From a virus, in UHGV virus genome UHGV-0057427: a stretch of DNA of 11,130 bases; one strand, written 5' to 3'. Position 1 is the first letter of the stretch; every line of letters begins with the position of its first letter. A program made the translations under genes and the position numbers. The notes under the pieces are model-generated. The model saw only the letters and a program-made list of their open reading frames with translations, was not told the origin of the DNA and searched no databases. Positions 1-10,356 of this stretch are shown here, in pieces.

Positions 1-747
1 GTACATCTCGCAGATTTGTTTATGAGTACGACCATCCTGCACACACATCAGGCGAATTTCGTTTGCCCAGGCTGCCCAGTTCGGTTCTTTGGGACGAACC
101 ACCTCGCCGTCACATTCGGCGGCATGCTCGTACAGGGCGATGATTTTTTTCCAGAGCCACTGTGCGCAGGTCAAATCATCCTGCGTCCCCCACTGGCGCT
201 TTTTAGGGCTGAATACAACCGCATCAGGATGGCAAGTTAAAAAATCCTGTTCAGCCGTCTGCGTGTCCGGTTGCGAAGCGTCCGGACGAGAAGTTTTTTT
301 ATCTGACGGATCATGTTTTGATTTTACTGACGGATCCCCACCAGATTCTGACGGGTGAAAACCCGCTTTTTTGCCAGATTTCGACGCATCAAATTTTGAC
401 GGGTCAGATTTTGATGCGTCAGATTTTGACGGGTCAGAATCTGACAGTTGAGAAAATGCCGCTGCCTGAAGCTTCGCAACGTTAAGCTGATAAACATTCG
501 ACGCATTGCGGTTACCCTGGCGACGCGCCCTACGCGTTAACCAGCCTTCTGCTTCCAGCCGTGCGATAGCCGTTCTGACGGTACTCATCCCCGCGCCAAT
601 CTGGCGGGCAATGGTTTCAATTGATGGCCAGCACACACCTTCGTCATTACTGAAATCAGCCAGGCGGGCCATAATTGCCACGCTGGATAATTTCATGCCT
701 GATGCAGCGCAACCATCCCATACATAGCCGGTTAATTTAGTGCTCAT
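1..747 (-). CDS. Phage replication initiation protein, lambda O-like (N-terminal 249 codons; C-terminus off the left edge)
   Basis: Not in the ORF track because no stop lies in the window. I translated the minus strand by hand from ATG at 747-745 and found no stop through nt 1: MSTKLTGYVWDGCAASGMKLSSVAIMARLADFSNDEGVCWPSIETIARQIGAGMSTVRTAIARLEAEGWLTRR..., an HTH-like N-terminal domain followed by an S/D/P/K pentapeptide-repeat linker encoded by the 15-bp iterons. SD-like AGAGGT lies 4 nt upstream. The position after cro and cII matches lambda O. Confidence 0.6.
   Translation of the reverse strand, partial: MSTKLTGYVWDGCAASGMKLSSVAIMARLADFSNDEGVCWPSIETIARQIGAGMSTVRTAIARLEAEGWLTRRARRQGNRNASNVYQLNVAKLQAAAFSQLSDSDPSKSDASKSDPSKFDASKSGKKAGFHPSESGGDPSVKSKHDPSDKKTSRPDASQPDTQTAEQDFLTCHPDAVVFSPKKRQWGTQDDLTCAQWLWKKIIALYEHAAECDGEVVRPKEPNWAAWANEIRLMCVQDGRTHKQICEMY
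301..450. repeat. Candidate replication origin iterons: five contiguous 15-bp direct repeats (376-450) plus three degenerate copies (301-360), inside the O-like gene
   Basis: Units 376-390 agatttcgacgcatc, 391-405 aaattttgacgggtc, 406-420 agattttgatgcgtc, 421-435 agattttgacgggtc, 436-450 agaatctgacagttg; degenerate copies around 301-315, 320-336 and 344-358. In lambda the ori iterons lie inside the O gene (established knowledge). Confidence 0.6.
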
Positions 748-756
748 GACCGACCT

Positions 757-1095
757 CTATTTCCCTGAATTTACGACGAAACTGTTCGAGCGGGCTGAAG
801 CACTCATGCTCATAGCCTTCGCGGAGGTAGATAACACGTTGTGTTTCCGGCTCCCAACGAATGACTCTGACGGGCACTCCGTAGTGATCTTTGAACCAGC
901 GGTTAACTTGTCGCAAAGGACTGTCTCCTTCTGCCGGTTGAAATCACCCACAGCCCACTCTGCAAAGCTGTGGGTTACAATTTCCCTGTCACCTGGTACA
1001 TTTACTGCATAGCAATACTCCACCTTCGCTTTTCCACCCGGTACAGGAAGCGCAATCAGTTGCGAGCGACGGTAGTGTGTTGTTAAACTGTTCAT
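757..1095 (-). CDS. Hypothetical protein (112 aa) between the CII-like and O-like genes
   Basis: ATG at 1095-1093 overlaps the TGA stop of the upstream CII-like ORF (ATGA coupling), same strand as the cro-cII-O operon. Composition is unremarkable and S/T-rich at the C-terminus; no motif recognised. An antisense plus-strand ORF (740-1012) also exists, so coding status is uncertain. Confidence 0.35.
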
Positions 1096-1655
1096 GCGTT
1101 AGTTTCTCCACAGTCACGACACGCCACGGCGCCCGGAGCTGCACACTCGCGGGCGTCATTACTTTCTGAAATGCAAAAAATTTTGTAGACCAGTGCTGCA
1201 TGCTCCTGCAGCTTCGAAATTGAGAGGTACAGCTCGTCGTTAATTGCTGTCTTCTCATGCGGTTCCACTACACCGTCTTCAATTGCTGAACGAATCTGTT
1301 TTGAATAACTGCCGATCTGTTCAATGACTTCCAGCAGGCGCTGGTTAATATCGGCGTTGTCCACATCCTCGACGTCAGGAAGAGACACAAAGACGCCATT
1401 TGCAGACTGCGCCACAGCATCAGCAATGAAGTGAGTGCCACCAGCACGCTGTAAAACCATTGCCCATCCCAGCGGGAAAATCTGATCGCCATCTGCACGA
1501 AGGCGGTTGAATAAAGCGTTTTCTGTTACATCGAGCCAATCAGCCGCTTCAGCGTAACCACCCGGCAACGCCGCGATAGTTTTTCTGACAGCTTTCACGT
1601 ACCACTCAGGCTGTTTTTCTATTTTCCAGTGATGCTTACCCACGATTAGCCTCAT
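1092..1655 (-). CDS. Phage regulatory protein at the CII position (CII-like/YdaT-like), 187 aa
   Basis: Intact ORF directly downstream of the cro-like gene and upstream of the replication gene, same strand, stop overlapping the next start. Assignment is positional; I cannot confirm family membership without an HMM search. Confidence 0.45.
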
Positions 1656-1686
1656 CGTTCTGTGGTTAAAAATTGAAAGTGTTCTG

Positions 1687-1887
1687 CTAATCTTTCGGAT
1701 AGATATCCGGTCTTAAGTCAGATTTCGTAATTGCACCTGACGTGCATTGCTCAAGTTTTTTAGCCAGCACAAAACTGGCTTTTTTATAGCCATTGAAAAC
1801 CAGCCGTAAGTAGCCAGGTGTTGAGCCAACTTTTCCGGCCAACTCGCCCTGCTGTTCTTTGGTTAAAGAGTCCCAATACGCTTTCAT
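1687..1887 (-). CDS. cro: Cro-like HTH transcriptional regulator (66 aa)
   Basis: The track ORF 1687-2190 has a long low-quality N-terminal extension; the internal ATG at 1887-1885 is preceded by GGAGGT at good spacing and gives MKAYWDSLTKEQQGELAGKVGSTPGYLRLVFNGYKKASFVLAKKLEQCTSGAITKSDLRPDIYPKD, a typical small Cro/YdaS-type HTH. It is divergent from the CI gene across an operator-containing intergenic region. Confidence 0.65.
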   Translation of the reverse strand: MKAYWDSLTKEQQGELAGKVGSTPGYLRLVFNGYKKASFVLAKKLEQCTSGAITKSDLRPDIYPKD

Positions 1888-1977
1888 ACAATATGTACCT
1901 CCGATGTACATATTACATGATTGAAATGAACCTTCAAGATACTTGTACCTTAACGGTACAAGGGTTTTAATTTCGTT
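1888..1977. promoter_or_regulatory. Divergent cI/cro promoter-operator region with two 21-bp palindromic operators (1892-1912 and 1942-1962)
   Basis: 1892-1912 TATGTAC-N7-GTACATA and 1942-1962 CTTGTACC-N5-GGTACAAG are perfect inverted repeats; both put two GTAC cores 11 bp apart (one helical turn). They lie between divergent repressor and cro-like genes, as OR does in lambda. Confidence 0.6.
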
Positions 1978-2652
1978 ATGAAAACAATCCATGACATCCG
2001 GCGGTCTAACGCCAGAAAACTGAGAGATGGTGTTGGCGGGAATTCTTCCTTTGCCACTATGATTGATCGCGAGCCAACCCAGACCAGCAGGTTTATGGGA
2101 GATGGTGCTACTAAAAATATCGGTGACAGCATGGCACGACACATAGAAAAATGTTTCGACCTGCCTGTCGGATGGCTCGATCAAGAACACCAGACAACGA
2201 ACATCACAAAAAAACCTGATGTTTCAATCACTAATAAACAAATCACATTAGTCCCTGTCATATCATGGGTACAGGCCGGAGCATGGAAAGAAGTTGGATA
2301 TTCTGAGGTTGATTTGAGCACAGCAGAAACGTATCCCTGCCCTGTACCCTGTGGGGAAATGACTTATATCTTGCGGGTGATAGGTGATTCAATGATTGAT
2401 GAGTACCGCCCGGGAGACATGATTTTTGTCGATCCTGAAGTACCTGCCTGCCACGGTGACGACGTTATTGCATTGATGCACGATACAGGTGAAACCACCT
2501 TCAAAAGGTTGATAGAAGATGGGACACAGCGTTATCTCAAAGCGTTAAACCCAAACTGGCCTGAGCCTTACATTAAGATCAACGGTAATTGCTCTATAAT
2601 TGGAACTGTGATTTTCTCAGGAAAACCAAGAAGATACAAAATCAAAGCTTAA
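1978..2652 (+). CDS. cI: CI-type phage repressor, N-terminal HTH plus C-terminal S24 (LexA-like) autopeptidase domain, 224 aa
   Basis: C-terminal half aligns by eye with lambda CI (TFKRLIEDGTQRYLKALNPNWPEPYIKINGNCSIIGTVI versus lambda [36 protein letters not shown]), with the GDSM serine motif and a downstream Lys. No SD precedes the ATG at 1978, consistent with a leaderless PRM-type transcript. Confidence 0.88.
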   Translation: MKTIHDIRRSNARKLRDGVGGNSSFATMIDREPTQTSRFMGDGATKNIGDSMARHIEKCFDLPVGWLDQEHQTTNITKKPDVSITNKQITLVPVISWVQAGAWKEVGYSEVDLSTAETYPCPVPCGEMTYILRVIGDSMIDEYRPGDMIFVDPEVPACHGDDVIALMHDTGETTFKRLIEDGTQRYLKALNPNWPEPYIKINGNCSIIGTVIFSGKPRRYKIKA

Positions 2653-2666
2653 TCAATGTTTATGAA

Positions 2667-2687
2667 CCTGCTTCGGCAGGTTTTTTT
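2667..2687 (+). terminator. Rho-independent terminator after the CI gene
   Basis: CCTGC-ttcg-GCAGG hairpin (2667-2680, UUCG tetraloop) followed by seven T (2681-2687), 15 nt after the cI stop at 2650-2652. Confidence 0.8.
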
Positions 2688-2691
2688 ATAC

Positions 2692-2724
2692 TTGACAATG
2701 TACCTTTGAGATACATAATGTACC
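2692..2724 (+). promoter_or_regulatory. Sigma70-type promoter (TTGACA-16-CATAAT) overlapped by GTAC-core operator-like sites, reading rightward
   Basis: TTGACA at 2692-2697, CATAAT at 2714-2719. The palindrome ATGTA...TACAT (2698-2716) and a second AATGTACC (2717-2724) share the GTAC core of the cI/cro operators. No plus-strand ORF follows; the downstream gene is on the opposite strand. Confidence 0.45.
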
Positions 2725-2802
2725 CAAGAGAAACAACAAACAGGCAGGACGCCCACGAAGTATCCGCCTGGGGCATATGAAGTCCAGGATGATTCGTTAG
2801 CA

Positions 2803-2830
2803 ACAAAAAAGCGCCCTACAGGACGCTTAG
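2803..2830 (-). terminator. Rho-independent terminator of the minus-strand zinc-ribbon gene (possibly bidirectional)
   Basis: On the minus strand: AAGCGUCC-UGUA-GGGCGCUU stem-loop (one G-U pair) followed by UUUUGUUG, about 40 nt after the TAG stop at 2867-2869. Confidence 0.65.
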
Positions 2831-2866
2831 CTCTTTAACAATCTGGATATCCACAACAGTAGTAAT

Positions 2867-3358
2867 CTACAGATTGCCGTTAAGTTTTCTGGACAACTCC
2901 TCAATGGATGGAGGCGATACGTAATCCGGATTTTTATTCATCAGAAACTTATTTTCACAGTGGAGGCACCTGCTTTTATGAAAAAGCTCATCTTCGCTAA
3001 CCGGGAATGGTTGAAGTATCGATACTATCTTTTGTCCAAAACATTTTGGGCAAAGATGCATGGTTATGCTGCCACCGTTCACGATTACCTCCTTCGAGTA
3101 TACAAAAGTACCCGACTCAAGTTGGTTAAGGATATAGCCTTCCGTCTGAGCCTCAAAGTTTTCGAATTCTGCAATTTTAGCTTTGAGAGAAGCATTTATT
3201 TCTTGATAAGAGCCCACCAGTTCAACGAGAGACACGCATTCGCGCTGAATAGACGCAAGCTTTGAGTTTAGCTCACCAATAGCCGCATTTACTTCAGCTT
3301 GAGTTTTTGCCTCGTTCATTAGTTTTGCAATCTGGGCTGTTTCACGAATAGCCGTCAT
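2867..3358 (-). CDS. Coiled-coil protein with C-terminal CxxC...CxxC zinc ribbon (163 aa), unknown function
   Basis: The track ORF 2867-3646 begins with a P/R/G-rich artefactual extension. ATG at 3358-3356 gives MTAIRETAQIAKLMNEAKTQAEVNAAIGELNSKLASIQRE... (heptad-like helical N-half) then HLCPKC-x27-CLHC. A terminator follows. SD is weak and a GTG at 3382 is an alternative start. It sits in the slot between repressor and early-left operon, on the opposite strand to both. Confidence 0.55.
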   Translation of the reverse strand: MTAIRETAQIAKLMNEAKTQAEVNAAIGELNSKLASIQRECVSLVELVGSYQEINASLKAKIAEFENFEAQTEGYILNQLESGTFVYSKEVIVNGGSITMHLCPKCFGQKIVSILQPFPVSEDELFHKSRCLHCENKFLMNKNPDYVSPPSIEELSRKLNGNL

Positions 3359-3851
3359 TGCTGCCGTTAATTCAGCGATCACATTGAATACTCTTATTGT
3401 TGTTGGGGATATCCAGATTAACCGAATCCTTGTTGTTGGGGAATAACCAGGTCCACCTCGCCTGATGTGGCTAAAAGCAGGCACATAACAGCTAAGTATT
3501 TTCAACCAGAGAGAATCCTTAGCGTTGTGGTGAATGCGGCTCAGCGCACGCGGGTTAAGGTTGAGGCTGACAGTCGACCTTCTGTGGATACCCACCCGCC
3601 CGGGGTGCAACCTTCGCCAGGCACCGGGAGGCACCCGGCACCACAACTTTATGCTGTGTGTAGTCCTGGCGGTACCAGCTTGTACCCTTGCTTCCGGCTG
3701 GTACCGTCCTTTTTACAAAACAGAGAAGAGCATCACCGGACGACGGGCTCATAACCCAATCCATCCGGGCGGCTGCCACCGCAGGTGTTCTTCTCTGTTT
3801 TGTGGAGAAACCAACCGACCTTGCAGGGTCGATATGATGAGGAGCAGCAAA
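3359..3851. promoter_or_regulatory. Long GC-rich structured noncoding region between the divergent zinc-ribbon gene and the early operon (direct repeats, terminator-like hairpin, 15-bp long-range inverted repeat)
   Basis: Direct repeats ATTGTTGTTGGGGATATCCAG (3396-3416) and CTTGTTGTTGGGGAATAACCAG (3429-3450), with a third degenerate copy near 3512-3533. Hairpin GGTACCAGC (3671-3679) / GCTGGTACC (3697-3705) followed by T5 (3710-3714). Perfect 15-bp inverted repeat ACAAAACAGAGAAGA (3715-3729) / TCTTCTCTGTTTTGT (3789-3803) enclosing 59 nt. ORFs here translate to low-complexity P/G/R-rich sequence. Confidence 0.5.
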
Positions 3852-4214
3852 ATGGCTAGCGAACGCAGTACTGATGTGCAGGCATTTATCGGGGAGCTGG
3901 ACGGCGGCGTATTTGAAACCAAAATCGGCGCAGTTCTCAGTGAAGTCGCTTCCGGTGTGATGAACACGAAAACCAAAGGGAAGGTCTCACTCAATCTGGA
4001 AATCGAACCGTTTGATGAGAACCGTGTGAAAATCAAACACAAACTCTCATATGTTCGCCCGACTAACCGCGGGAAAATTTCCGAAGAAGACACCACCGAA
4101 ACGCCGATGTATGTCAATCGCGGTGGTCGCCTGACTATTCTGCAGGAAGACTATGGACAAATACTGACTCTTGCCGGTGAACCTGACGGAAAACTACGCG
4201 CAGCAGGTCATTAA
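3852..4214 (+). CDS. Phage early protein, 120 aa (yfdP-like by position and size), unknown function
   Basis: The track ORF 3534-4214 is extended through the noncoding region; ATG at 3852 has GAGGAG 7 nt upstream and gives MASERSTDVQAFIGELDGGVFETKIGAVLSEVASGVMNTK.... It is the first gene of a co-directional operon. Confidence 0.55.
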   Translation: MASERSTDVQAFIGELDGGVFETKIGAVLSEVASGVMNTKTKGKVSLNLEIEPFDENRVKIKHKLSYVRPTNRGKISEEDTTETPMYVNRGGRLTILQEDYGQILTLAGEPDGKLRAAGH

Positions 4215-4279
4215 TATCGTTCTTAATAAACTGATTATTTATCTCATCACTGAATATCTTTATATAGTGAGGACTTATT

Positions 4280-5104
4280 ATGTCTCAGAACTTAGACGCA
4301 ACCGCAATTAATCAAATCCATGCCCTTATTTCTGCTCAGGGTGTTAATGAAATTATCAGTAAGATTGGTGCCGATGCTGTGGCATTGCCTGAGAATTTCC
4401 GCATTCATGATCTGGAAAAATTTAATTTAAATCGCTTCCGTTTCCGTGGTGCGCTTTCCACTGCCAGCATCGATGACTTTACCCGTTATTCTAAAGATCT
4501 TGCAGATGAAGGCACCCGCTGCTTTATCGATGCTGATAATATGCGTGCCGTCAGTGTGCTTAACCTGGGTACTATTGATGAACCAGGTCACGCAGATAAC
4601 ACCGCCACTCTCAAACTGAAAAAGACAGCACCGTTCTCTGCCCTGTTGTCTGTTAACGGCGAGCGTAACTCCCAGAAGTCACTGGCAGAATGGATTGAAG
4701 ACTGGGCCGACTACCTTGTGGGCTTTGATGCTAATGGTGACGCCATTCAGGCAACCAAAGCGGCTGCGGCGATCCGTAAAATCACAATTGAAGCGAACCA
4801 GACCGCTGATTTTGAAGATAATGACTTCAGCGGCAAACGCTCCCTGATGGAGTCTGTCGAAGCGAAGACCAAAGACATTATGCCAGTGGCATTTGAATTT
4901 AAATGCGTTCCGTTTGAAGGTCTGAAAGAACGTCCGTTTAAATTACGCCTCAGCATTATCACTGGCGATCGTCCTGTACTGGTACTACGCATTATTCAGC
5001 TGGAAGCAGTGCAGGAGGAAATGGCTAACGAATTTCGTGATCTGCTTGTTGAGAAGTTCAAAGACAGCAAAGTAGAAACCTTTATTGGTACTTTCACCGC
5101 CTGA
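4280..5104 (+). CDS. yfdQ: YfdQ-like prophage protein (274 aa)
   Basis: ATG with GAGGA SD; length equals my recollection of K-12 CPS-53 YfdQ (274 aa) and it is followed by an HD-domain protein of YfdR size. The assignment is by size and synteny, not by alignment. Confidence 0.6.
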
Positions 5105-5231
5105 TTTCATTACTGCAAATGCCCCTGCGGGGGCATTTATGGAAACGTAATTAACTCAATAATCACCGGATGGTGAGGGCATCCTTTTACCAGAATTCAG
5201 CGCGGTGCAGTGCATATACGTGGAGAACAAA

Positions 5232-5768
5232 ATGTCATTTATTAAAACTTTTTCCGGGAAGCATTTTTATTATGACAGGATAAATAAAGACAACATCGAT
5301 ATTAACGATATCGCGGTTTCCCTTTCAAATATCTGTCGCTTTGCAGGACATCTTTCACACTTCTACAGCGTCGCCCAACATGCGGTGCTTTGCAGCCAGC
5401 TGGTACCGCAGGAATTTGCTTTTGAAGCGTTAATGCATGATGCAACAGAAGCTTATTGTCAGGACATCCCCGCGCCACTGAAACGCCTTCTTCCTGACTA
5501 TAAACGGATGGAAGAAAAAATAGACGCCGTAATCCGTGAGAAATACGGGTTACCCCCGGTTATGAGTACACCCGTGAAATATGCCGATCTCATCATGCTG
5601 GCAACCGAACGCCGCGATCTCGGGCTTGATGATGGCTCTTTCTGGCCTGTACTGGAAGGCATCCCGGCAACAGAGATGTTCAACGTGATTCCACTGGCAC
5701 CGGGCCATGCCTACGGGATGTTTATGGAACGTTTTAACGAGTTATCGGAGTTACGCAAATGCGCATGA
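5232..5768 (+). CDS. yfdR: HD-domain phosphohydrolase, YfdR-like (178 aa)
   Basis: ATG at 5232 preceded by GGAGAA; protein contains H...HD motifs (AQHAVLCSQL...EALMHDATEAY) typical of HD-domain 5'-deoxynucleotidase-like proteins; length 178 aa matches my recollection of K-12 YfdR. The track start at 5205 lacks an SD. Confidence 0.7.
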   Translation: MSFIKTFSGKHFYYDRINKDNIDINDIAVSLSNICRFAGHLSHFYSVAQHAVLCSQLVPQEFAFEALMHDATEAYCQDIPAPLKRLLPDYKRMEEKIDAVIREKYGLPPVMSTPVKYADLIMLATERRDLGLDDGSFWPVLEGIPATEMFNVIPLAPGHAYGMFMERFNELSELRKCA

Positions 5769-6121
5769 ATGTTTTCGAAATGGAAGGGTTTCTTCGTGGG
5801 AGATGTGTACCGCGAGATCTCAAAGTGAATGAAACAGATGCTGAATACCTGGTGCGCAAATTCGATGCGCTTGAAGCTAAATGTGCGGCACTGGAAAACA
5901 AAATAATACCAGTGTCAGCTGAACTGCCACCAGCAAATGAAAGTGTTCTGTTATTTGATGCTAATGGAGAAGGCTGGCTGATTGGCTGGCGTTCTCTCTG
6001 GTACACCTGGGGACAAAAAGAAACCGGAGAATGGCAGTGGACATTTCAGGTCGGGGACCTTGAAAACGTCAATATCACTCACTGGGCAGTAATGCCAAAA
6101 GCACCGGAGGCTGGAGCATAA
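5759..6121 (+). CDS. Hypothetical prophage protein, 120 aa (yfdS-like by size and position)
   Basis: ATG at 5759 overlaps the yfdR-like stop by 10 nt, with GGAG 8 nt upstream; compact operon organisation. Confidence 0.5.
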   Translation: MRMNVFEMEGFLRGRCVPRDLKVNETDAEYLVRKFDALEAKCAALENKIIPVSAELPPANESVLLFDANGEGWLIGWRSLWYTWGQKETGEWQWTFQVGDLENVNITHWAVMPKAPEAGA

Positions 6122-6345
6122 TGACCACATTTACCAATAAAGAACTGATTAAAGAAATTAAAGAGCGTATCAGCAGCCTTGACGTGCGAGACGATATTGA
6201 GCGCCGTGCTTATGAAATCGCACTTGTATCTCTGGAAGTAGAGCCAGATGAACGCGAAGCCTATGAATTATTCATGGAAAAGCGTTTCGGTGACTTAGTA
6301 GATCGTCGGAAAGCAAAAAACGGCGATAACGAATACATGGCATGA
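6121..6345 (+). CDS. Small acidic hypothetical protein, 74 aa
   Basis: ATG overlaps the previous stop (TAATG); sequence MTTFTNKELIKEIKERISSLDVRDDIERRAYEIALVSLEVEPDEREAYELF is charged and helical with no recognised motif. Confidence 0.45.
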   Translation: MTTFTNKELIKEIKERISSLDVRDDIERRAYEIALVSLEVEPDEREAYELFMEKRFGDLVDRRKAKNGDNEYMA

Positions 6346-6425
6346 GATATGACTCTCAGCTGGGTTGTCTGTCAGCAACGCACTGGAATGAGTCTTTAAA
6401 CTGTACAACCGCTGGAGGGTCAGCA

Positions 6426-6620
6426 ATGAACAACTTAATGACAACTAAACAAGTCGCCGACTTCTGTGGCGTTTCAGTATCAACAGTACTTCGCTGGAAC
6501 AGCGTAAACAGGAGGACAGGCCAGAAATACAGGCCAGATTTTCCAGATCCTGATATTAAATCCTGCCCAAATAAATGGGCATCACGCAAGATTTATAGGT
6601 TTGCGGGAATTATTGAGTAA
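6426..6620 (+). CDS. Excisionase/AlpA-family HTH DNA-binding protein (64 aa)
   Basis: ATG at 6426 has GGAGGG 6 nt upstream. N-terminus MNNLMTTKQVADFCGVSVSTVLRW is the typical excisionase-family HTH (T-x-Q-V-A...G-V-S...T-V-x-R-W). It is the last gene of the early operon, near the integrase. The track start at 6342 adds an unlikely extension. Confidence 0.55.
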   Translation: MNNLMTTKQVADFCGVSVSTVLRWNSVNRRTGQKYRPDFPDPDIKSCPNKWASRKIYRFAGIIE

Positions 6621-6629
6621 CGTGTATTA

Positions 6630-6659
6630 GTCACAGATGTGAACAGACACATCTGTGAC
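6630..6659. repeat. Perfect 12-bp inverted repeat (hairpin or protein-binding dyad) immediately after the excisionase-like gene
   Basis: GTCACAGATGTG (6630-6641), 6-nt loop aacaga, CACATCTGTGAC (6648-6659); no U tract follows, so it is not a canonical intrinsic terminator. Confidence 0.5.
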
Positions 6660-6983
6660 ACAGAACCAAATCTAATCTGAGTGTCCACTTTGTGGTGTGA
6701 GTTCAACCGATGGATGCAACACACAGGCGGAAGCTGAATGCATACTCACCTTTGTATCCCAGCGTGCTGTAACAATGAACAACAACACTCTGGTGATTTG
6801 ACGAGTGCTTAAATTCTTTCAGTAACAATGTATTGTTAGTTTACATAGTTGTAAATAAATATAGTTTATTGTAACATTTTGCTTGCAATGTCATTTAAGC
6901 AACCTGCTTACTTTGAGGGCTTTGATGATAGATGAATCCTTACTAAAATTATCATTTTTATGTATTGATTGAAGAGAAGATTA

Positions 6984-8984
6984 ATGATAGATAAATCAAT
7001 TACTAACCCTGGTTTCCATAAGCAGTTTCTATTAGAAAGGTTCAATGCTGATGAACAAAAAATATTAAAGTTATTATCAAAAGGATGGTATTTAACTAAT
7101 TCTGGCGAGGAGTTACAAATTGCTCAATCCAGATATAATTATTTTCTGATGAAACCTACACCAAAAACCTCTGAAATGTTCAACATTGAGAGAGAGATTG
7201 TTTGTGTATTTAGTAACTACGATTATTTTGAACCAAGAACATTAGATTTTTTCGAACAAGTTTACATGCGTCTTCCAAAGATGCGCACAGAGATGGTTTG
7301 TGCTGTTCTAATTGGCAGAGCTCCTGATACAGAAGAAAAGGTTGAACAGCTTCTTAAAGCTGATCCAGAGCATCAAATCATTGTACCTGTTAGTTATACT
7401 GAAATGATGTGCACAGATGCACTTCGAACACTTGAAAATAGATTTAGAAAACATTTCTACTCTCGAGATTTATTCTCCTTTTTATCTCCACTTAAAAAAG
7501 ATACATACTTTTTTGGTCGTTCAAATCTTATCAATGAGATTGTAAATCGATTCCAATCTGGGGAGCACACTAGCCTTTTTGGTCTTAGGAAAAGCGGAAA
7601 AACATCGATTGTATATGCAATCCAGAGACGTTTAGAGGCAAAAGGAGATTGTTTTGTATCATTAGATTGCGAAAGCCCATCAATACATGGCCTTCGCTGG
7701 TATGAATTACTTGAGAAACTAGTATTATTATATCTAGAGGCAAAAAAATCTAAAGTTAAAATTAACACATCTGGTAGATATGATGTTAAGAATGCTGCAG
7801 AGAGCTTTGAAACAGATATATTAAAAATTTACAACTCAAAAAAAACAGCAAGTGCTATATTTATTTTCGATGAAATTGAAAGAATTACACCGACAACGGG
7901 AGCTTCGATTCACTGGAGAGAAGAAACCGATTTTATATACTTTTGGCAGACAATGCGCGGTTTTTACCAGAAACATCCGTCTGTTTTCTGTTATATGTTA
8001 GTTGGCACAAACCCAAGTTGTATAGAAACACCATCATTATTGGGGCATGACAATCCAATTTATGCTTCAATTCAAAGCCAATATGTTCCTCCTTTTACTG
8101 TTGATCAAGTTAGTCAAATGGTTACACGTTTAGGTGATTATATGGGATTAAAATTTGACAATTTGATCACTGCAAAACTGGCAGAAGACTATGGCGGACA
8201 TCCATTTTTAATTCGCCAAGCTTGCAGCCAAATTAACAAGCTAATCCCTTCAGATAGACCTGTAACAATTGATAAATCTCTATATAATAAGTCTAAGATC
8301 GAGTTTAGGAACAACTCTCAGGAGTATTTAGCAATGATGATTCAGGTATTGTCGGAATGGTATCCTGATGAGTACGAAATGCTATGTTTACTCGCTCAAG
8401 GGGATATGGATAGTTTCAATTCATTTGCTCAGGATCATACATCTTATACTCGACATTTAATTGGCTATGGGCTTATTCAAAAAGGCACATCTGGTTATTC
8501 CTTTAACCTTGAGGAAATTTCTGATTTGCTTAGAAAAAAACATCAACATGAAAGATTAAACCTGACAGATGAAGAAAAGGTTCAAGAGATTTCAATTAGA
8601 AGAAATCGCTTAGAAAAAGGTTTGCGGATACTTGTCAGGAACACATTAAAAATATATAAGGGTTCAAATAAAGCAAAAGATGCTGTTATTTCTGCAGTTC
8701 CTGATGGGCGAAAATCAACATTACAAAATTACGATTTATCCAAACTATTAGATCCTGATTCATCTCCATTATTCTTTCTCGAATTAATTAACATAATTAC
8801 GAGAGAGTGGGTGATTTTTGATAATGTTTTTGGGATTAATAAAGAAAAAATAAAAATTATGCTTGAGGAAATTAACACTAAAGGACGTCCAGATGCACAT
8901 GCAAAATGTATTGACGAAGATGATTTTCAGCAATTAAGGCTTTACTTCAAAAAGCTTGAGTTAATACTTCAAGAGTGGTTATAA
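6984..8984 (+). CDS. P-loop NTPase with STAND/ORC-Cdc6-type AAA+ motif order, unknown N- and C-terminal domains (666 aa); candidate defense cargo
   Basis: Walker A GLRKSGKTS (nt 7581-7607) preceded by FFGRSNLINEIVNRF, Walker B IFIFDE (nt 7860-7874), sensor-1-like MLVGTN, GxP-like YGGHPFLIRQ. Codon usage is visibly AT-rich compared with neighbours. First ATG at 6984 with purine-rich SD; track start 6969 is TTG. Stands alone between xis-like and int. Confidence 0.8.
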   Translation: MIDKSITNPGFHKQFLLERFNADEQKILKLLSKGWYLTNSGEELQIAQSRYNYFLMKPTPKTSEMFNIEREIVCVFSNYDYFEPRTLDFFEQVYMRLPKMRTEMVCAVLIGRAPDTEEKVEQLLKADPEHQIIVPVSYTEMMCTDALRTLENRFRKHFYSRDLFSFLSPLKKDTYFFGRSNLINEIVNRFQSGEHTSLFGLRKSGKTSIVYAIQRRLEAKGDCFVSLDCESPSIHGLRWYELLEKLVLLYLEAKKSKVKINTSGRYDVKNAAESFETDILKIYNSKKTASAIFIFDEIERITPTTGASIHWREETDFIYFWQTMRGFYQKHPSVFCYMLVGTNPSCIETPSLLGHDNPIYASIQSQYVPPFTVDQVSQMVTRLGDYMGLKFDNLITAKLAEDYGGHPFLIRQACSQINKLIPSDRPVTIDKSLYNKSKIEFRNNSQEYLAMMIQVLSEWYPDEYEMLCLLAQGDMDSFNSFAQDHTSYTRHLIGYGLIQKGTSGYSFNLEEISDLLRKKHQHERLNLTDEEKVQEISIRRNRLEKGLRILVRNTLKIYKGSNKAKDAVISAVPDGRKSTLQNYDLSKLLDPDSSPLFFLELINIITREWVIFDNVFGINKEKIKIMLEEINTKGRPDAHAKCIDEDDFQQLRLYFKKLELILQEWL

Positions 8985-9081: not shown

Positions 9082-10356
9082 TTATCGTTCAAAGCGGGCT
9101 GTCAGATTTGATTGAGTCCTACTAAGCAAACTATCAGTTGTGTCCGCACTAGTACAAGTAATGATCGATTCAACTCTCTCCCACCATGCCTGGTAGGCTT
9201 TACGCTGTTCTTCTAGATAATCGCTCTTGTCATAAACTTGCCATACCCCTGGCAGTTTATGACCTAGCATTATTTCTGCAATATGAGGCGCAGTAAGATC
9301 AGAAAAGTTTGTTCGTGCTGTTCGCCTCAAATCATGAAGAGACCAATGAGGGAATTGATACCCCAAACGCCGCCATGCGTACTGCATTAAATTGTAAGGC
9401 AGCGACTGCAATGATGTCCGACCAACGGGTTCCCTGCTTCCTTCCTTAGTAAAAAGCATATCGGAACCATTATTCATAGAAATAGCGTACTTTATAAGCT
9501 CTTCAACCGGTTCAATAATGGGCCGCTTTAGCGGTTCGCCCGTTATCTCCCCAGTCTTATGTCGTTCTGGTGGTACAGTCCATACTTTATTAATGAAATC
9601 AAAATCGTCCACCCTGGCGGTAATTAGCTCTGAACTACGGCAGCCAAAATGCAGCAATAGTTTAATGAAGGCCCGGTATTTAGGAACCATTCGAGAACCA
9701 TCGATCGCAGCATAAAGGATTTTAATTTCATCATGTGTCAGAAACCGTTTCTTCTGACCTTTACGGATATCCATATCTTTACCCGTGATATCCGACAACG
9801 GGCGAGTTTCAATGAGCTTTCTCTTATACGCCCAGACATGGGCCTGCTTTGCGTTAATTAGCAATCGGTCTGCTATTGCTGGAGTCTTAGTGCTAAGAGG
9901 CTCCAGGACTTCTAACCAATCATGCAATGTAGCTGCATCGTGAGGGATATTCCCGATTTTAGAGAACAGGTGCAGCTCAAACGAGCGGAGTATCTGTTCA
10001 GAACCTTTTTTATTTTTTACACAATATGCTTCATACCAGGCACGGATCACAGACTCTACCGTCATGGCTTCAGTAGCTTTTCGTTTTTCAGCCTGCTTGA
10101 CCAATCGTGGATTACGGTTTGACTCGAGTTCACCACGGAGACGGGTAACTTCTTCTCTGGCCTCTTTTAATCCAGTTGCCGGGTAAGTTCCGATATCAAG
10201 ACGCTCACCTTTCCCTGCCCATTGATAACGATATTGGAACACTACGCGACCTTTCGGTGATACTCTGACAGACAGACCATCACGATCGGATTTAACCAAA
10301 ACCTTATCACGTTCCTTTCCAACGACTGAACGCAACCACGCATCAGACAGCGCCAT
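9082..10356 (-). CDS. int: Phage integrase, tyrosine recombinase (424 aa)
   Basis: N-terminal arm-binding-type region (GLSVRVSPKGRVVFQYRYQWAGKGERLDIGTYPATGLKEAREE), C-terminal catalytic signatures HDLRRTART and conserved Tyr region (LGHKLPGVWQVYDKSDY). It lies adjacent to the host junction. Confidence 0.9.
   Translation of the reverse strand: MALSDAWLRSVVGKERDKVLVKSDRDGLSVRVSPKGRVVFQYRYQWAGKGERLDIGTYPATGLKEAREEVTRLRGELESNRNPRLVKQAEKRKATEAMTVESVIRAWYEAYCVKNKKGSEQILRSFELHLFSKIGNIPHDAATLHDWLEVLEPLSTKTPAIADRLLINAKQAHVWAYKRKLIETRPLSDITGKDMDIRKGQKKRFLTHDEIKILYAAIDGSRMVPKYRAFIKLLLHFGCRSSELITARVDDFDFINKVWTVPPERHKTGEITGEPLKRPIIEPVEELIKYAISMNNGSDMLFTKEGSREPVGRTSLQSLPYNLMQYAWRRLGYQFPHWSLHDLRRTARTNFSDLTAPHIAEIMLGHKLPGVWQVYDKSDYLEEQRKAYQAWWERVESIITCTSADTTDSLLSRTQSNLTARFER

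Follow-up and report, generated by a model that had tools for sequence, protein, structure and literature searches.

The window analysed here, an 11,130-nucleotide (nt) stretch of the virus genome UHGV-0057427 numbered from its first letter, carries at 3852-6620 a block of plus-strand genes matching the yfdP-yfdQ-yfdR-yfdS-yfdT cluster known from the Escherichia coli K-12 prophage CPS-53 (KplE1). The block raises the question of what kind of unit these genes form in their own phage setting, and whether they might act there on the replication of the host. From its gene order and control signals, the block is rather probably the early-left (pL-type) operon of a lambdoid prophage of the SfV/SfIV/e14 type, adjacent to yjjG. 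The yfdP-yfdQ-yfdR-yfdS block of lambda-like E. coli prophages is as such common and previously described, and its gene names, its link to DnaA and its usual early-left place are all known; the present copy is remarkable only for revealing what the K-12 copy has lost.

The yfd genes and their K-12 counterparts

The orthology of the first four genes to those of K-12 is far above chance. The gene yfdP (3852-4214, plus strand) encodes 120 amino acids (aa), 117/120 identical in BLASTP to K-12 YfdP (b2359), and yfdQ (4280-5104, plus strand) encodes 274 aa, of which 273 are identical to YfdQ (b2360). They are followed by yfdR (5232-5768, plus strand), coding for a 178-aa HD-domain protein, a putative 5'-deoxynucleotidase, with 174/178 residues identical to K-12 YfdR (b2361), and by yfdS (5759-6121, plus strand), the 120-aa product of which shares 118 residues with YfdS (b2362). 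A previous sequence-only reading had recognised the cluster from product lengths of 120, 274, 178 and 120 aa, and these are indeed four consecutive plus-strand genes with lengths equal to those of K-12. The alignments with K-12 bore out the identity of YfdP (117/120), YfdQ (273/274), YfdR (174/178) and YfdS (118/120), but YfdT was matched over the first 74 of its 101 aa only, with 72/74 identical residues. The likeness to CPS-53 includes gene order and spacing, with 97-99% identical proteins and DNA homology reaching from 17 base pairs (bp) 5' of the yfdP ATG into the yfdT tail.

Several traits of the block are those of an operon. The genes lie on one strand throughout, the 5' end of yfdS overlaps the 3' end of yfdR by 10 nt, yfdS and yfdT overlap by 1 nt, and Shine-Dalgarno sequences precede yfdP (GAGGAG, 7 nt 5' of the ATG), yfdR and xis (GGAGGG at 6414-6419). 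The 127-nt gap between yfdQ and yfdR holds a GC-rich hairpin, AAAUGCCCC-UGCG-GGGGCAUUU (5117-5138, plus strand), which was read from the sequence and may terminate transcription in part or act as a stabiliser. This hairpin is flanked by runs of A and U, resembling a weak two-way terminator, and a second hairpin lies in the same gap at 5168-5184. The two might set the expression of the genes from yfdR to xis below that of yfdP and yfdQ.

As for protein families, YfdP belongs to PF27127 ('YfdP'), a model carried by 120/120 homologues among the matches listed, and to PHROG 204. YfdQ is a DUF2303 protein (Pfam PF10065, residues 7-272, 311.4 bits versus a cut-off of 26.6). A homologue of YfdQ has been solved (PDB 9o7m, 'YfdQ Protein', 36 chains) and aligns over residues 16-273 with an expect value (E) of 8e-45; the 36 chains hint at a large oligomer. 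This entry might show what DUF2303 does, and no publication on it was found in a literature search, nor was it among the Foldseek matches of the YfdQ model in the PDB library. The HD motifs that the sequence-only reading had seen in the 178-aa product are real: the signature VAQH(50), ALMH(69)D(70)ATE(73)AYCQD(78)IPAPLK of YfdR aligns at H50, H69-D70, E73 and D78 with the HD phosphohydrolase Atu1052 (PDB 2gz4, E 1e-13). YfdR also matches PHROG 318, 'deoxyribonucleoside 5' monophosphate phosphatase', with E 9e-110, and bears the RefSeq product name 5'-deoxynucleotidase. It scored below the cut-offs of YfbR-like (24.4 versus 25.9 bits), HD_3 (17.0 versus 22.5) and NCBIfam NF003009 (19.9 versus 122), and is thus a distant relative of YfbR, outside that equivalog.

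The C-terminal part of YfdS (residues 50-117) is assigned to DUF551 (PF04448) by a marginal score of 22.1 bits versus a cut-off of 22, and the protein to PHROG 583, while its N-terminal segment is of the EaE/Ea22 type, with the first 49 residues common to those families. The N-terminal segment of YfdT, MTTFTNKELIKEIKERISSL..., is fused to differing C-terminal domains across prophages, and in strain F1053 (6622-7242 of its locus, L005) a 206-aa DUF551 protein occupies the yfdT slot. YfdS and YfdT-type proteins are in this sense mosaic: the head stays constant and the tail varies. There was no match of YfdP, YfdQ or YfdS to any PADLOC defence-system model, and no family-level NCBIfam match of YfdP, YfdQ, YfdS or YfdT.

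The cluster had been taken for complete through yfdT, which did not hold. The truncated yfdT (6121-6345, plus strand) encodes residues 1-74 only, not a full-length protein of about 101 aa as in K-12, since codon 75 is TGA here versus TGG in K-12 and strain XD35 in the DNA alignment. In the tail that follows (6346-6425), another in-frame stop (TAA) and, before it, several missense changes show that the 3' end of the gene is decaying. An identical allele is present in strain AREA_497, where PGAP annotated it as a yfdT pseudogene without the C-terminus, and only 2 of the 5,426 complete E. coli genomes have a 100% match to it, which makes the allele rare. The remainder of the block, likewise assumed to be yfd-like, turned out to be an excisionase gene. 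This last gene of the operon, xis (6426-6620, plus strand), codes for 64 aa with a HTH_17/MerR-type N-terminus and matches PHROG 1553 over its full length (E 2.3e-35); the matching stretch covers genes annotated as xis or excisionase in SfV and SfIV. Neither YfdT nor K-12 TorI resembled its product (BLASTP versus TorI gave E 0.68 and no meaningful alignment). A 92-aa open reading frame at 6342-6620 represents a mechanical extension of the 64-aa xis.

The control region and its loss from K-12

The window represents one end of a lambdoid prophage that borders yjjG. On the left, the initiator-like, DUF4222, cII-like ymfL and cro-like genes (all minus strand) are followed by the cI-type repressor gene (plus) and an opposite-strand gene (minus), and then come a 460-bp non-coding stretch, the yfd genes, xis, a gene for a STAND-like nucleoside triphosphatase (NTPase; 6969-8984), the integrase gene (9082-10356, minus) and yjjG. 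The cI-type repressor of the LexA-family S24 type (1978-2652, plus strand; 224 aa) was identified by Pfam Peptidase_S24 (E 1.5e-26) and as PHROG 4 repressor; it is labelled ymfK or cI in relatives, and a terminator scan gave the gene a terminator of its own at 2664-2683. The cro-like repressor gene (1687-1887, minus strand; Pfam YdaS_toxin and HTH_3), annotated as Cro or as YdaS-family in PhiR49_1 and F1053, is the first gene of the early-right operon.

Between cro and cI lies the OR region (1892-1960) with three operator-like sites, of which 1944-1960 is a perfect palindrome, 1927-1943 adjoins it and 1892-1910 is a looser third copy. The 17-bp operator pattern TGWACC-N5-RRWACW has five matches on the two strands, at four sites, where 0.01 would be expected. 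Directly 3' of the cI terminator, OL1 (2699-2715) and OL2 (2719-2735) have the same pattern as the OR sites at 1927-1960 and overlap a promoter, TTGACA-16-CATAAT at 2692-2719, within a pL-equivalent unit at 2692-2735 (plus strand). This promoter agrees with the consensus at 11/12 positions and is the best match of the region, oriented toward the yfd genes. As read from these motifs, the operators and promoter after cI are a lambda-type pL/OL layout.

The promoter lies 1.1 kb from yfdP, with the opposite-strand gene between them, and no closer plus-strand promoter near yfdP passed the promoter scan. The likeliest transcript would thus start at about 2726 and run antisense through the opposite-strand gene into the leader. 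That gene (2867-3388, minus strand; PHROG 1244), in the path of the putative pL transcript, encodes a 173-aa protein with a coiled coil and two CxxC pairs, and has its own terminator at 2828-2809. For an N-type antiterminator or nut site, no plausible plus-strand gene was found in 2726-3852 and no such Rfam or Pfam match was obtained. The intact setting, structured leader and repressor control that the sequence-only reading had presumed are hence there by sequence, in the form of operators, promoter, leader fold and a segment that K-12 lacks, but the promoter is 1.1 kb off and not beside yfdP.

Within this segment (515-3834), 3.32 kb long between the junction points, are the N-terminal part of the initiator gene, DUF4222, a cII-like gene, cro and cI, and further pL/OL, the opposite-strand gene and the leader in full. 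Window positions 1-514 are about 98% identical to K-12 2473073-2473586 on the yfdO side, and at the K-12 junction ...CATTGCGGTTA is joined straight to TGATGAGGAGCAGCAAAATG, which contains the yfdP ribosome-binding site and start, with a 2-bp TA microhomology. On this alignment, CPS-53 is the present arrangement minus 515-3834, and through this deletion it has the yfd genes without their control region. Past the shared block the two prophages differ as well: CPS-53 has a full-length yfdT followed by ypdJ and torI and is integrated at argW by IntS, whereas here the truncated yfdT is followed by an excisionase gene unrelated to torI, and a 424-aa integrase is encoded on the opposite strand, beside yjjG. 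The K-12 experiments on yfdQRST were accordingly done on genes detached from repressor, promoter and leader.

The leader folds far better than shuffled sequence (z -5.9) and consists of two parts. The first (3494-3717, plus strand) is a core resembling the STnc100 RNA (Rfam RF02076) with an intrinsic terminator. It carries the conserved motifs GUGGUGAAUGCGGCU...CACCGGGAGGCACCCGGCACCAC...UGCUGUGUGUAGUC, ends in UGCUGUGUGUAGUC, and aligns end to end with the Rfam model at 35 bits (E 5.8e-6), which is below the gathering score of 47, so it is not a curated member. Sub-threshold matches (29-41 bits in the relatives) were also found in PhiR49_1, Cronobacter phiES15, Salmonella ST64B and K-12 e14, and in those four phages the element sits 3' of the repressor gene, before the first early-left genes. 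The terminator has its stem at 3668-3708 and its U-run at 3709-3714. A hairpin with a U-run follows UGCUGUGUGUAGUC in every phage compared, the hairpin sequence differing, and this retention in spite of sequence change is what is expected of a functional intrinsic terminator. The second part (3712-3806, plus strand) is a long hairpin, in which a 24-bp stem closes two small stem-loops (free energy -48.3 kcal/mol, z -7.3). ST64B and e14 both keep it, the stem showing one compensatory GC-to-AU pair as well as wobble changes. The length of the stem and its position right before the yfdP ribosome-binding site suggest a candidate ribonuclease III (RNase III) processing site. The leader is present as a single copy within the window, with none after the rightward promoter.

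In phage HK022, the put RNAs act downstream of PL and PR as antitermination elements that need no protein. Like them, the leader is a structured RNA that lies past an early promoter and ahead of the first terminator, in an interval where no N gene can be recognised. As a homologue of put it was rejected, because it had no BLAST match to HK022 20000-36000 and is single in the window; the comparison is kept as an analogy only. With STnc100 of Rfam, a small RNA of Salmonella and E. coli prophages, it shares the full-length model, the GGUGAAU...CACCGGGAGGCACCCGGCACCA motifs and the terminal hairpin with U-run, but the leader heads an early-left operon and is followed by same-strand genes, whereas the canonical STnc100 copies on record belong to late regions, one such place being 3' of stx2 (PMC12370729). 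In SfV, ST64B, e14, phiES15 and the present prophage alike, the core stands at the start of the early-left operon, and the 24-bp hairpin is found in all of them but phiES15. By analogy, the core could be a cis-acting, N-independent read-through device of put-like logic and unrelated sequence, which would gate xis and YfdQ/R/S, with the terminated RNA doubling as the STnc100-type small RNA known from transcriptomes; we regard this combined role as quite unlikely.

Window positions 3527-3837 are annotated by RefSeq as 'frameshifted hypothetical protein', or as YmfH in e14, with matching annotations at 6028-6338 (locus L001), 4027-4337 (L005) and 1576-1887 (L010). A protein-coding leader was rejected, as the alignment with e14 YmfH spans only 40 residues and the frame is disrupted by single-base indels. 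The RNA structure is conserved and the frame is not, and the protein annotation is probably an error that recurs across thousands of genomes. Two matches in Klebsiella phages are labelled tRNA, and a tRNA or tRNA remnant was likewise discarded: ARAGORN detected none even at relaxed thresholds, and in the one of the two that was inspected, vB_Kpn_Chronis, the match starts at the end of a tRNA gene and extends downstream of it. There, an inner part of the long hairpin recurs just 3' of the tRNA-Asn gene (L006, 42636-42686). Moreover, the leader fragment GUGGUGAAUGCGGCU... recurs in the upl-tciA spacer of phage P1 (L007, P1 70077-70108), and the leader may be assembled from mobile RNA modules. 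It is a conserved, unannotated RNA element, mislabelled by the NCBI pipeline, and worth transcript-level study.

Host replication and competing explanations

What is known of the function of these genes comes from K-12. Purified YfdR binds DnaA in a Phe46-dependent manner (Noguchi and Katayama, 2016; PMC4776307), the contact being on DnaA domain I around Phe46, where YfdR competes with DiaA and DnaB (PMC4776307); like the phosphatase activity on deoxynucleoside monophosphates, this binding is known from K-12 biochemistry only. Multicopy yfdQ and yfdR together with yfdS or yfdT suppress over-initiation mutants and inhibit initiation at oriC in the wild type, yfdP being dispensable (PMC4776307). 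The YfdR-DnaA binding and the inhibition of initiation by yfdQ-yfdR-yfdS-yfdT had been stated in the sequence-only reading, in agreement with this paper. The idea of a takeover is not new either, as a role favouring phage replication was already proposed there with reference to the SfV homologues orf29-31 (PMC4776307).

The replication effect is transferred to the present block because the proteins are 98-99% identical. With yfdQ, yfdR and yfdS intact, the set sufficient in K-12 is kept, and the effect should survive without the yfdT tail. From the overexpression data we infer that YfdQ, YfdR and YfdS could inhibit replication here also, and a host-takeover module is plausible, solely by analogy with those data.

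In the mechanism we propose, the cI-type S24 repressor would, in the lysogen, sit on the operators overlapping the promoter at 2692-2719. Its SOS-induced cleavage would release rightward transcription, antisense across the opposite-strand gene, and the transcript would then pass the STnc100-like core, the terminator at 3668-3714 and the 24-bp hairpin at 3712-3806 before entering yfdP-yfdQ-yfdR-yfdS, the truncated yfdT and xis. Owing to the terminator, only a fraction of transcription, or only a modified polymerase, would get to the genes. YfdR would bind DnaA and, oversupplied together with YfdQ and YfdS, reduce initiation at oriC, as was shown in K-12, and Xis from the same transcript, judged from its family, would direct excision. 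The place to ask whether YfdR stops host initiation upon induction is an intact prophage of this type, or else SfV, SfIV or PhiR49_1.

Several points weigh against an early-left operon acting on host replication. In K-12, deletion of yfdQRST left initiation unaffected, and the authors themselves regard the overexpression effect as possibly an artefact (PMC4776307). The Xenorhabdus version of the module is without the HD gene, so YfdP and YfdQ can function without the HD protein. AlphaFold models of YfdQ and YfdP (predicted local distance difference test scores, pLDDT, of 77 and 70, respectively) matched no informative fold. Furthermore, promoter, terminator read-through and co-transcription are predictions; a weak promoter nearer yfdP could serve the genes, and the STnc100-like element might instead be a small-RNA gene in its own right.

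The leading alternative, which we hold to be unlikely, is that the true job of the cluster is nucleotide-pool handling or counter-defence in lytic growth, with YfdR a deoxynucleoside monophosphate (dNMP) phosphatase, YfdP and YfdQ its partners, and DnaA binding a side effect of overproduction. The early 5'-deoxynucleotidase (Dmp) of phage T5 offers a comparison for YfdR in such a capacity. The PHROG 318 match with its E of 9e-110, the RefSeq name 5'-deoxynucleotidase and the intact catalytic HD motif all agree with this, and so do the artefact conceded by the 2016 authors and the deletion without an initiation phenotype (PMC4776307). However, the nucleotide affinity of YfdR is far below that of YfbR, as cited in the same work, the binding of purified YfdR to DnaA is specific and Phe46-dependent, and suppression depended on yfdQ along with yfdS or yfdT (PMC4776307), a requirement that phosphatase action by itself does not account for.

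We consider it very unlikely that the genes serve the lysogen instead, being expressed from the prophage at a low level for tolerance of oxidative, acid or alkylation stress. K-12 deletions of yfdQ or yfdS increase the sensitivity to hydrogen peroxide, and that of yfdQ also to methyl methanesulfonate (work cited in PMC4776307), and K-12 keeps the block despite its deleted control region. Yet the operator-covered promoter and the terminator of the present prophage predict silence in the lysogen, the genes are co-oriented with xis, which must stay off in a stable lysogen, and the cluster has the same location in lytically competent phages. Least probable of all is an unrecognised role of YfdP and YfdQ in recombination or replication support, as a module in the slot of exo/bet/gam or erf/abc of other lambdoid phages: the pair does come first in the early-left operon right after the leader, the same leader precedes kil/gam/AAA genes in phiES15, and the 36-chain entry of the YfdQ homologue suggests a large oligomer typical of annealing proteins, but the YfdQ and YfdP structure models resembled none of the folds of Rad52, RecT, Erf or Gam, and the cluster is also seen in phages that possess a full and separate Rec module, a role in recombination having been judged unlikely (PMC12315714).

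Related prophages and neighbouring features

The yfd block is present in 3,069 of the 5,426 complete E. coli genomes, and elsewhere its genes carry the RefSeq names yfdP, YfdQ family and yfdR 5'-deoxynucleotidase. In the isolated phages PhiR49_1, PhiR29, SfIV and SfV, the stretch from cI to yfdT is 97-98% identical to the present one, and closely related prophages occupy the same yjjG site in other strains. SfV (orf29-31), SfIV, PhiR49_1/PhiR29 and ST64B (sb35-37) share with it cI, leader, yfdP, yfdQ, HD protein, yfdS-like and yfdT-like genes and xis/int, the identity in the leader being 77% for ST64B. They vary in the gene intervening between cI and the leader, in the C-terminal half of the proteins of yfdS and yfdT type and in the xis/int module, and PhiR49_1 has a full-length YfdT. 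The order of cI, leader, YfdP and YfdQ, through to xis/int, recurs in ST64B and in Xenorhabdus and Yersinia ruckeri prophages, and on this gene order YfdP and YfdQ are the conserved core pair of the module. The early-left position of the cluster is common in lambdoid phages (PMC12315714).

At the left end, the window begins within a replication-initiator-like gene, of which the 3' two-thirds are included (1-747, minus strand; Pfam HTH_36, E 3e-11). Inside it, iterons of the repeat CAGATTTTGACGGGT occur at 375-438 with a 15-nt period and 4.3 copies. These repeats form a lambda-type origin pattern inside an initiator gene, and they survive in K-12 just upstream of yfdP.

The opposite-strand gene at 2867-3388 is flanked by 26-nt inverted repeats (2840-2865 and 3394-3419; 85% complementary), and a third copy in direct orientation, TTGTTGTTGGGGA, follows at 3430-3445, 33 nt further on. 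The repeats around the gene could be scars of a moron insertion, could pair over a long range in the pL transcript, or could be binding sites.

The plus-strand gene at 6969-8984, between xis and int, encodes a 671-aa STAND-like NTPase with weak nSTAND1 and AAA matches and a GC content of 30-37%; no convincing match to a PADLOC system was obtained for it. In sister prophages at yjjG, the same slot is filled by dGTPase-family, CHAT, anti-phage dCTP deaminase, Dsr1, HNH endonuclease and AIPR genes, and the xis-int interval looks like a swappable slot for defence genes. Finally, a perfect 12-bp inverted repeat, GTCACAGATGTG-N6-CACATCTGTGAC, is located at 6629-6658, 9 nt past the xis stop and without a U-run after it. 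As a hairpin it may act in processing or stability; alternatively, it may bind a protein near the attachment region.

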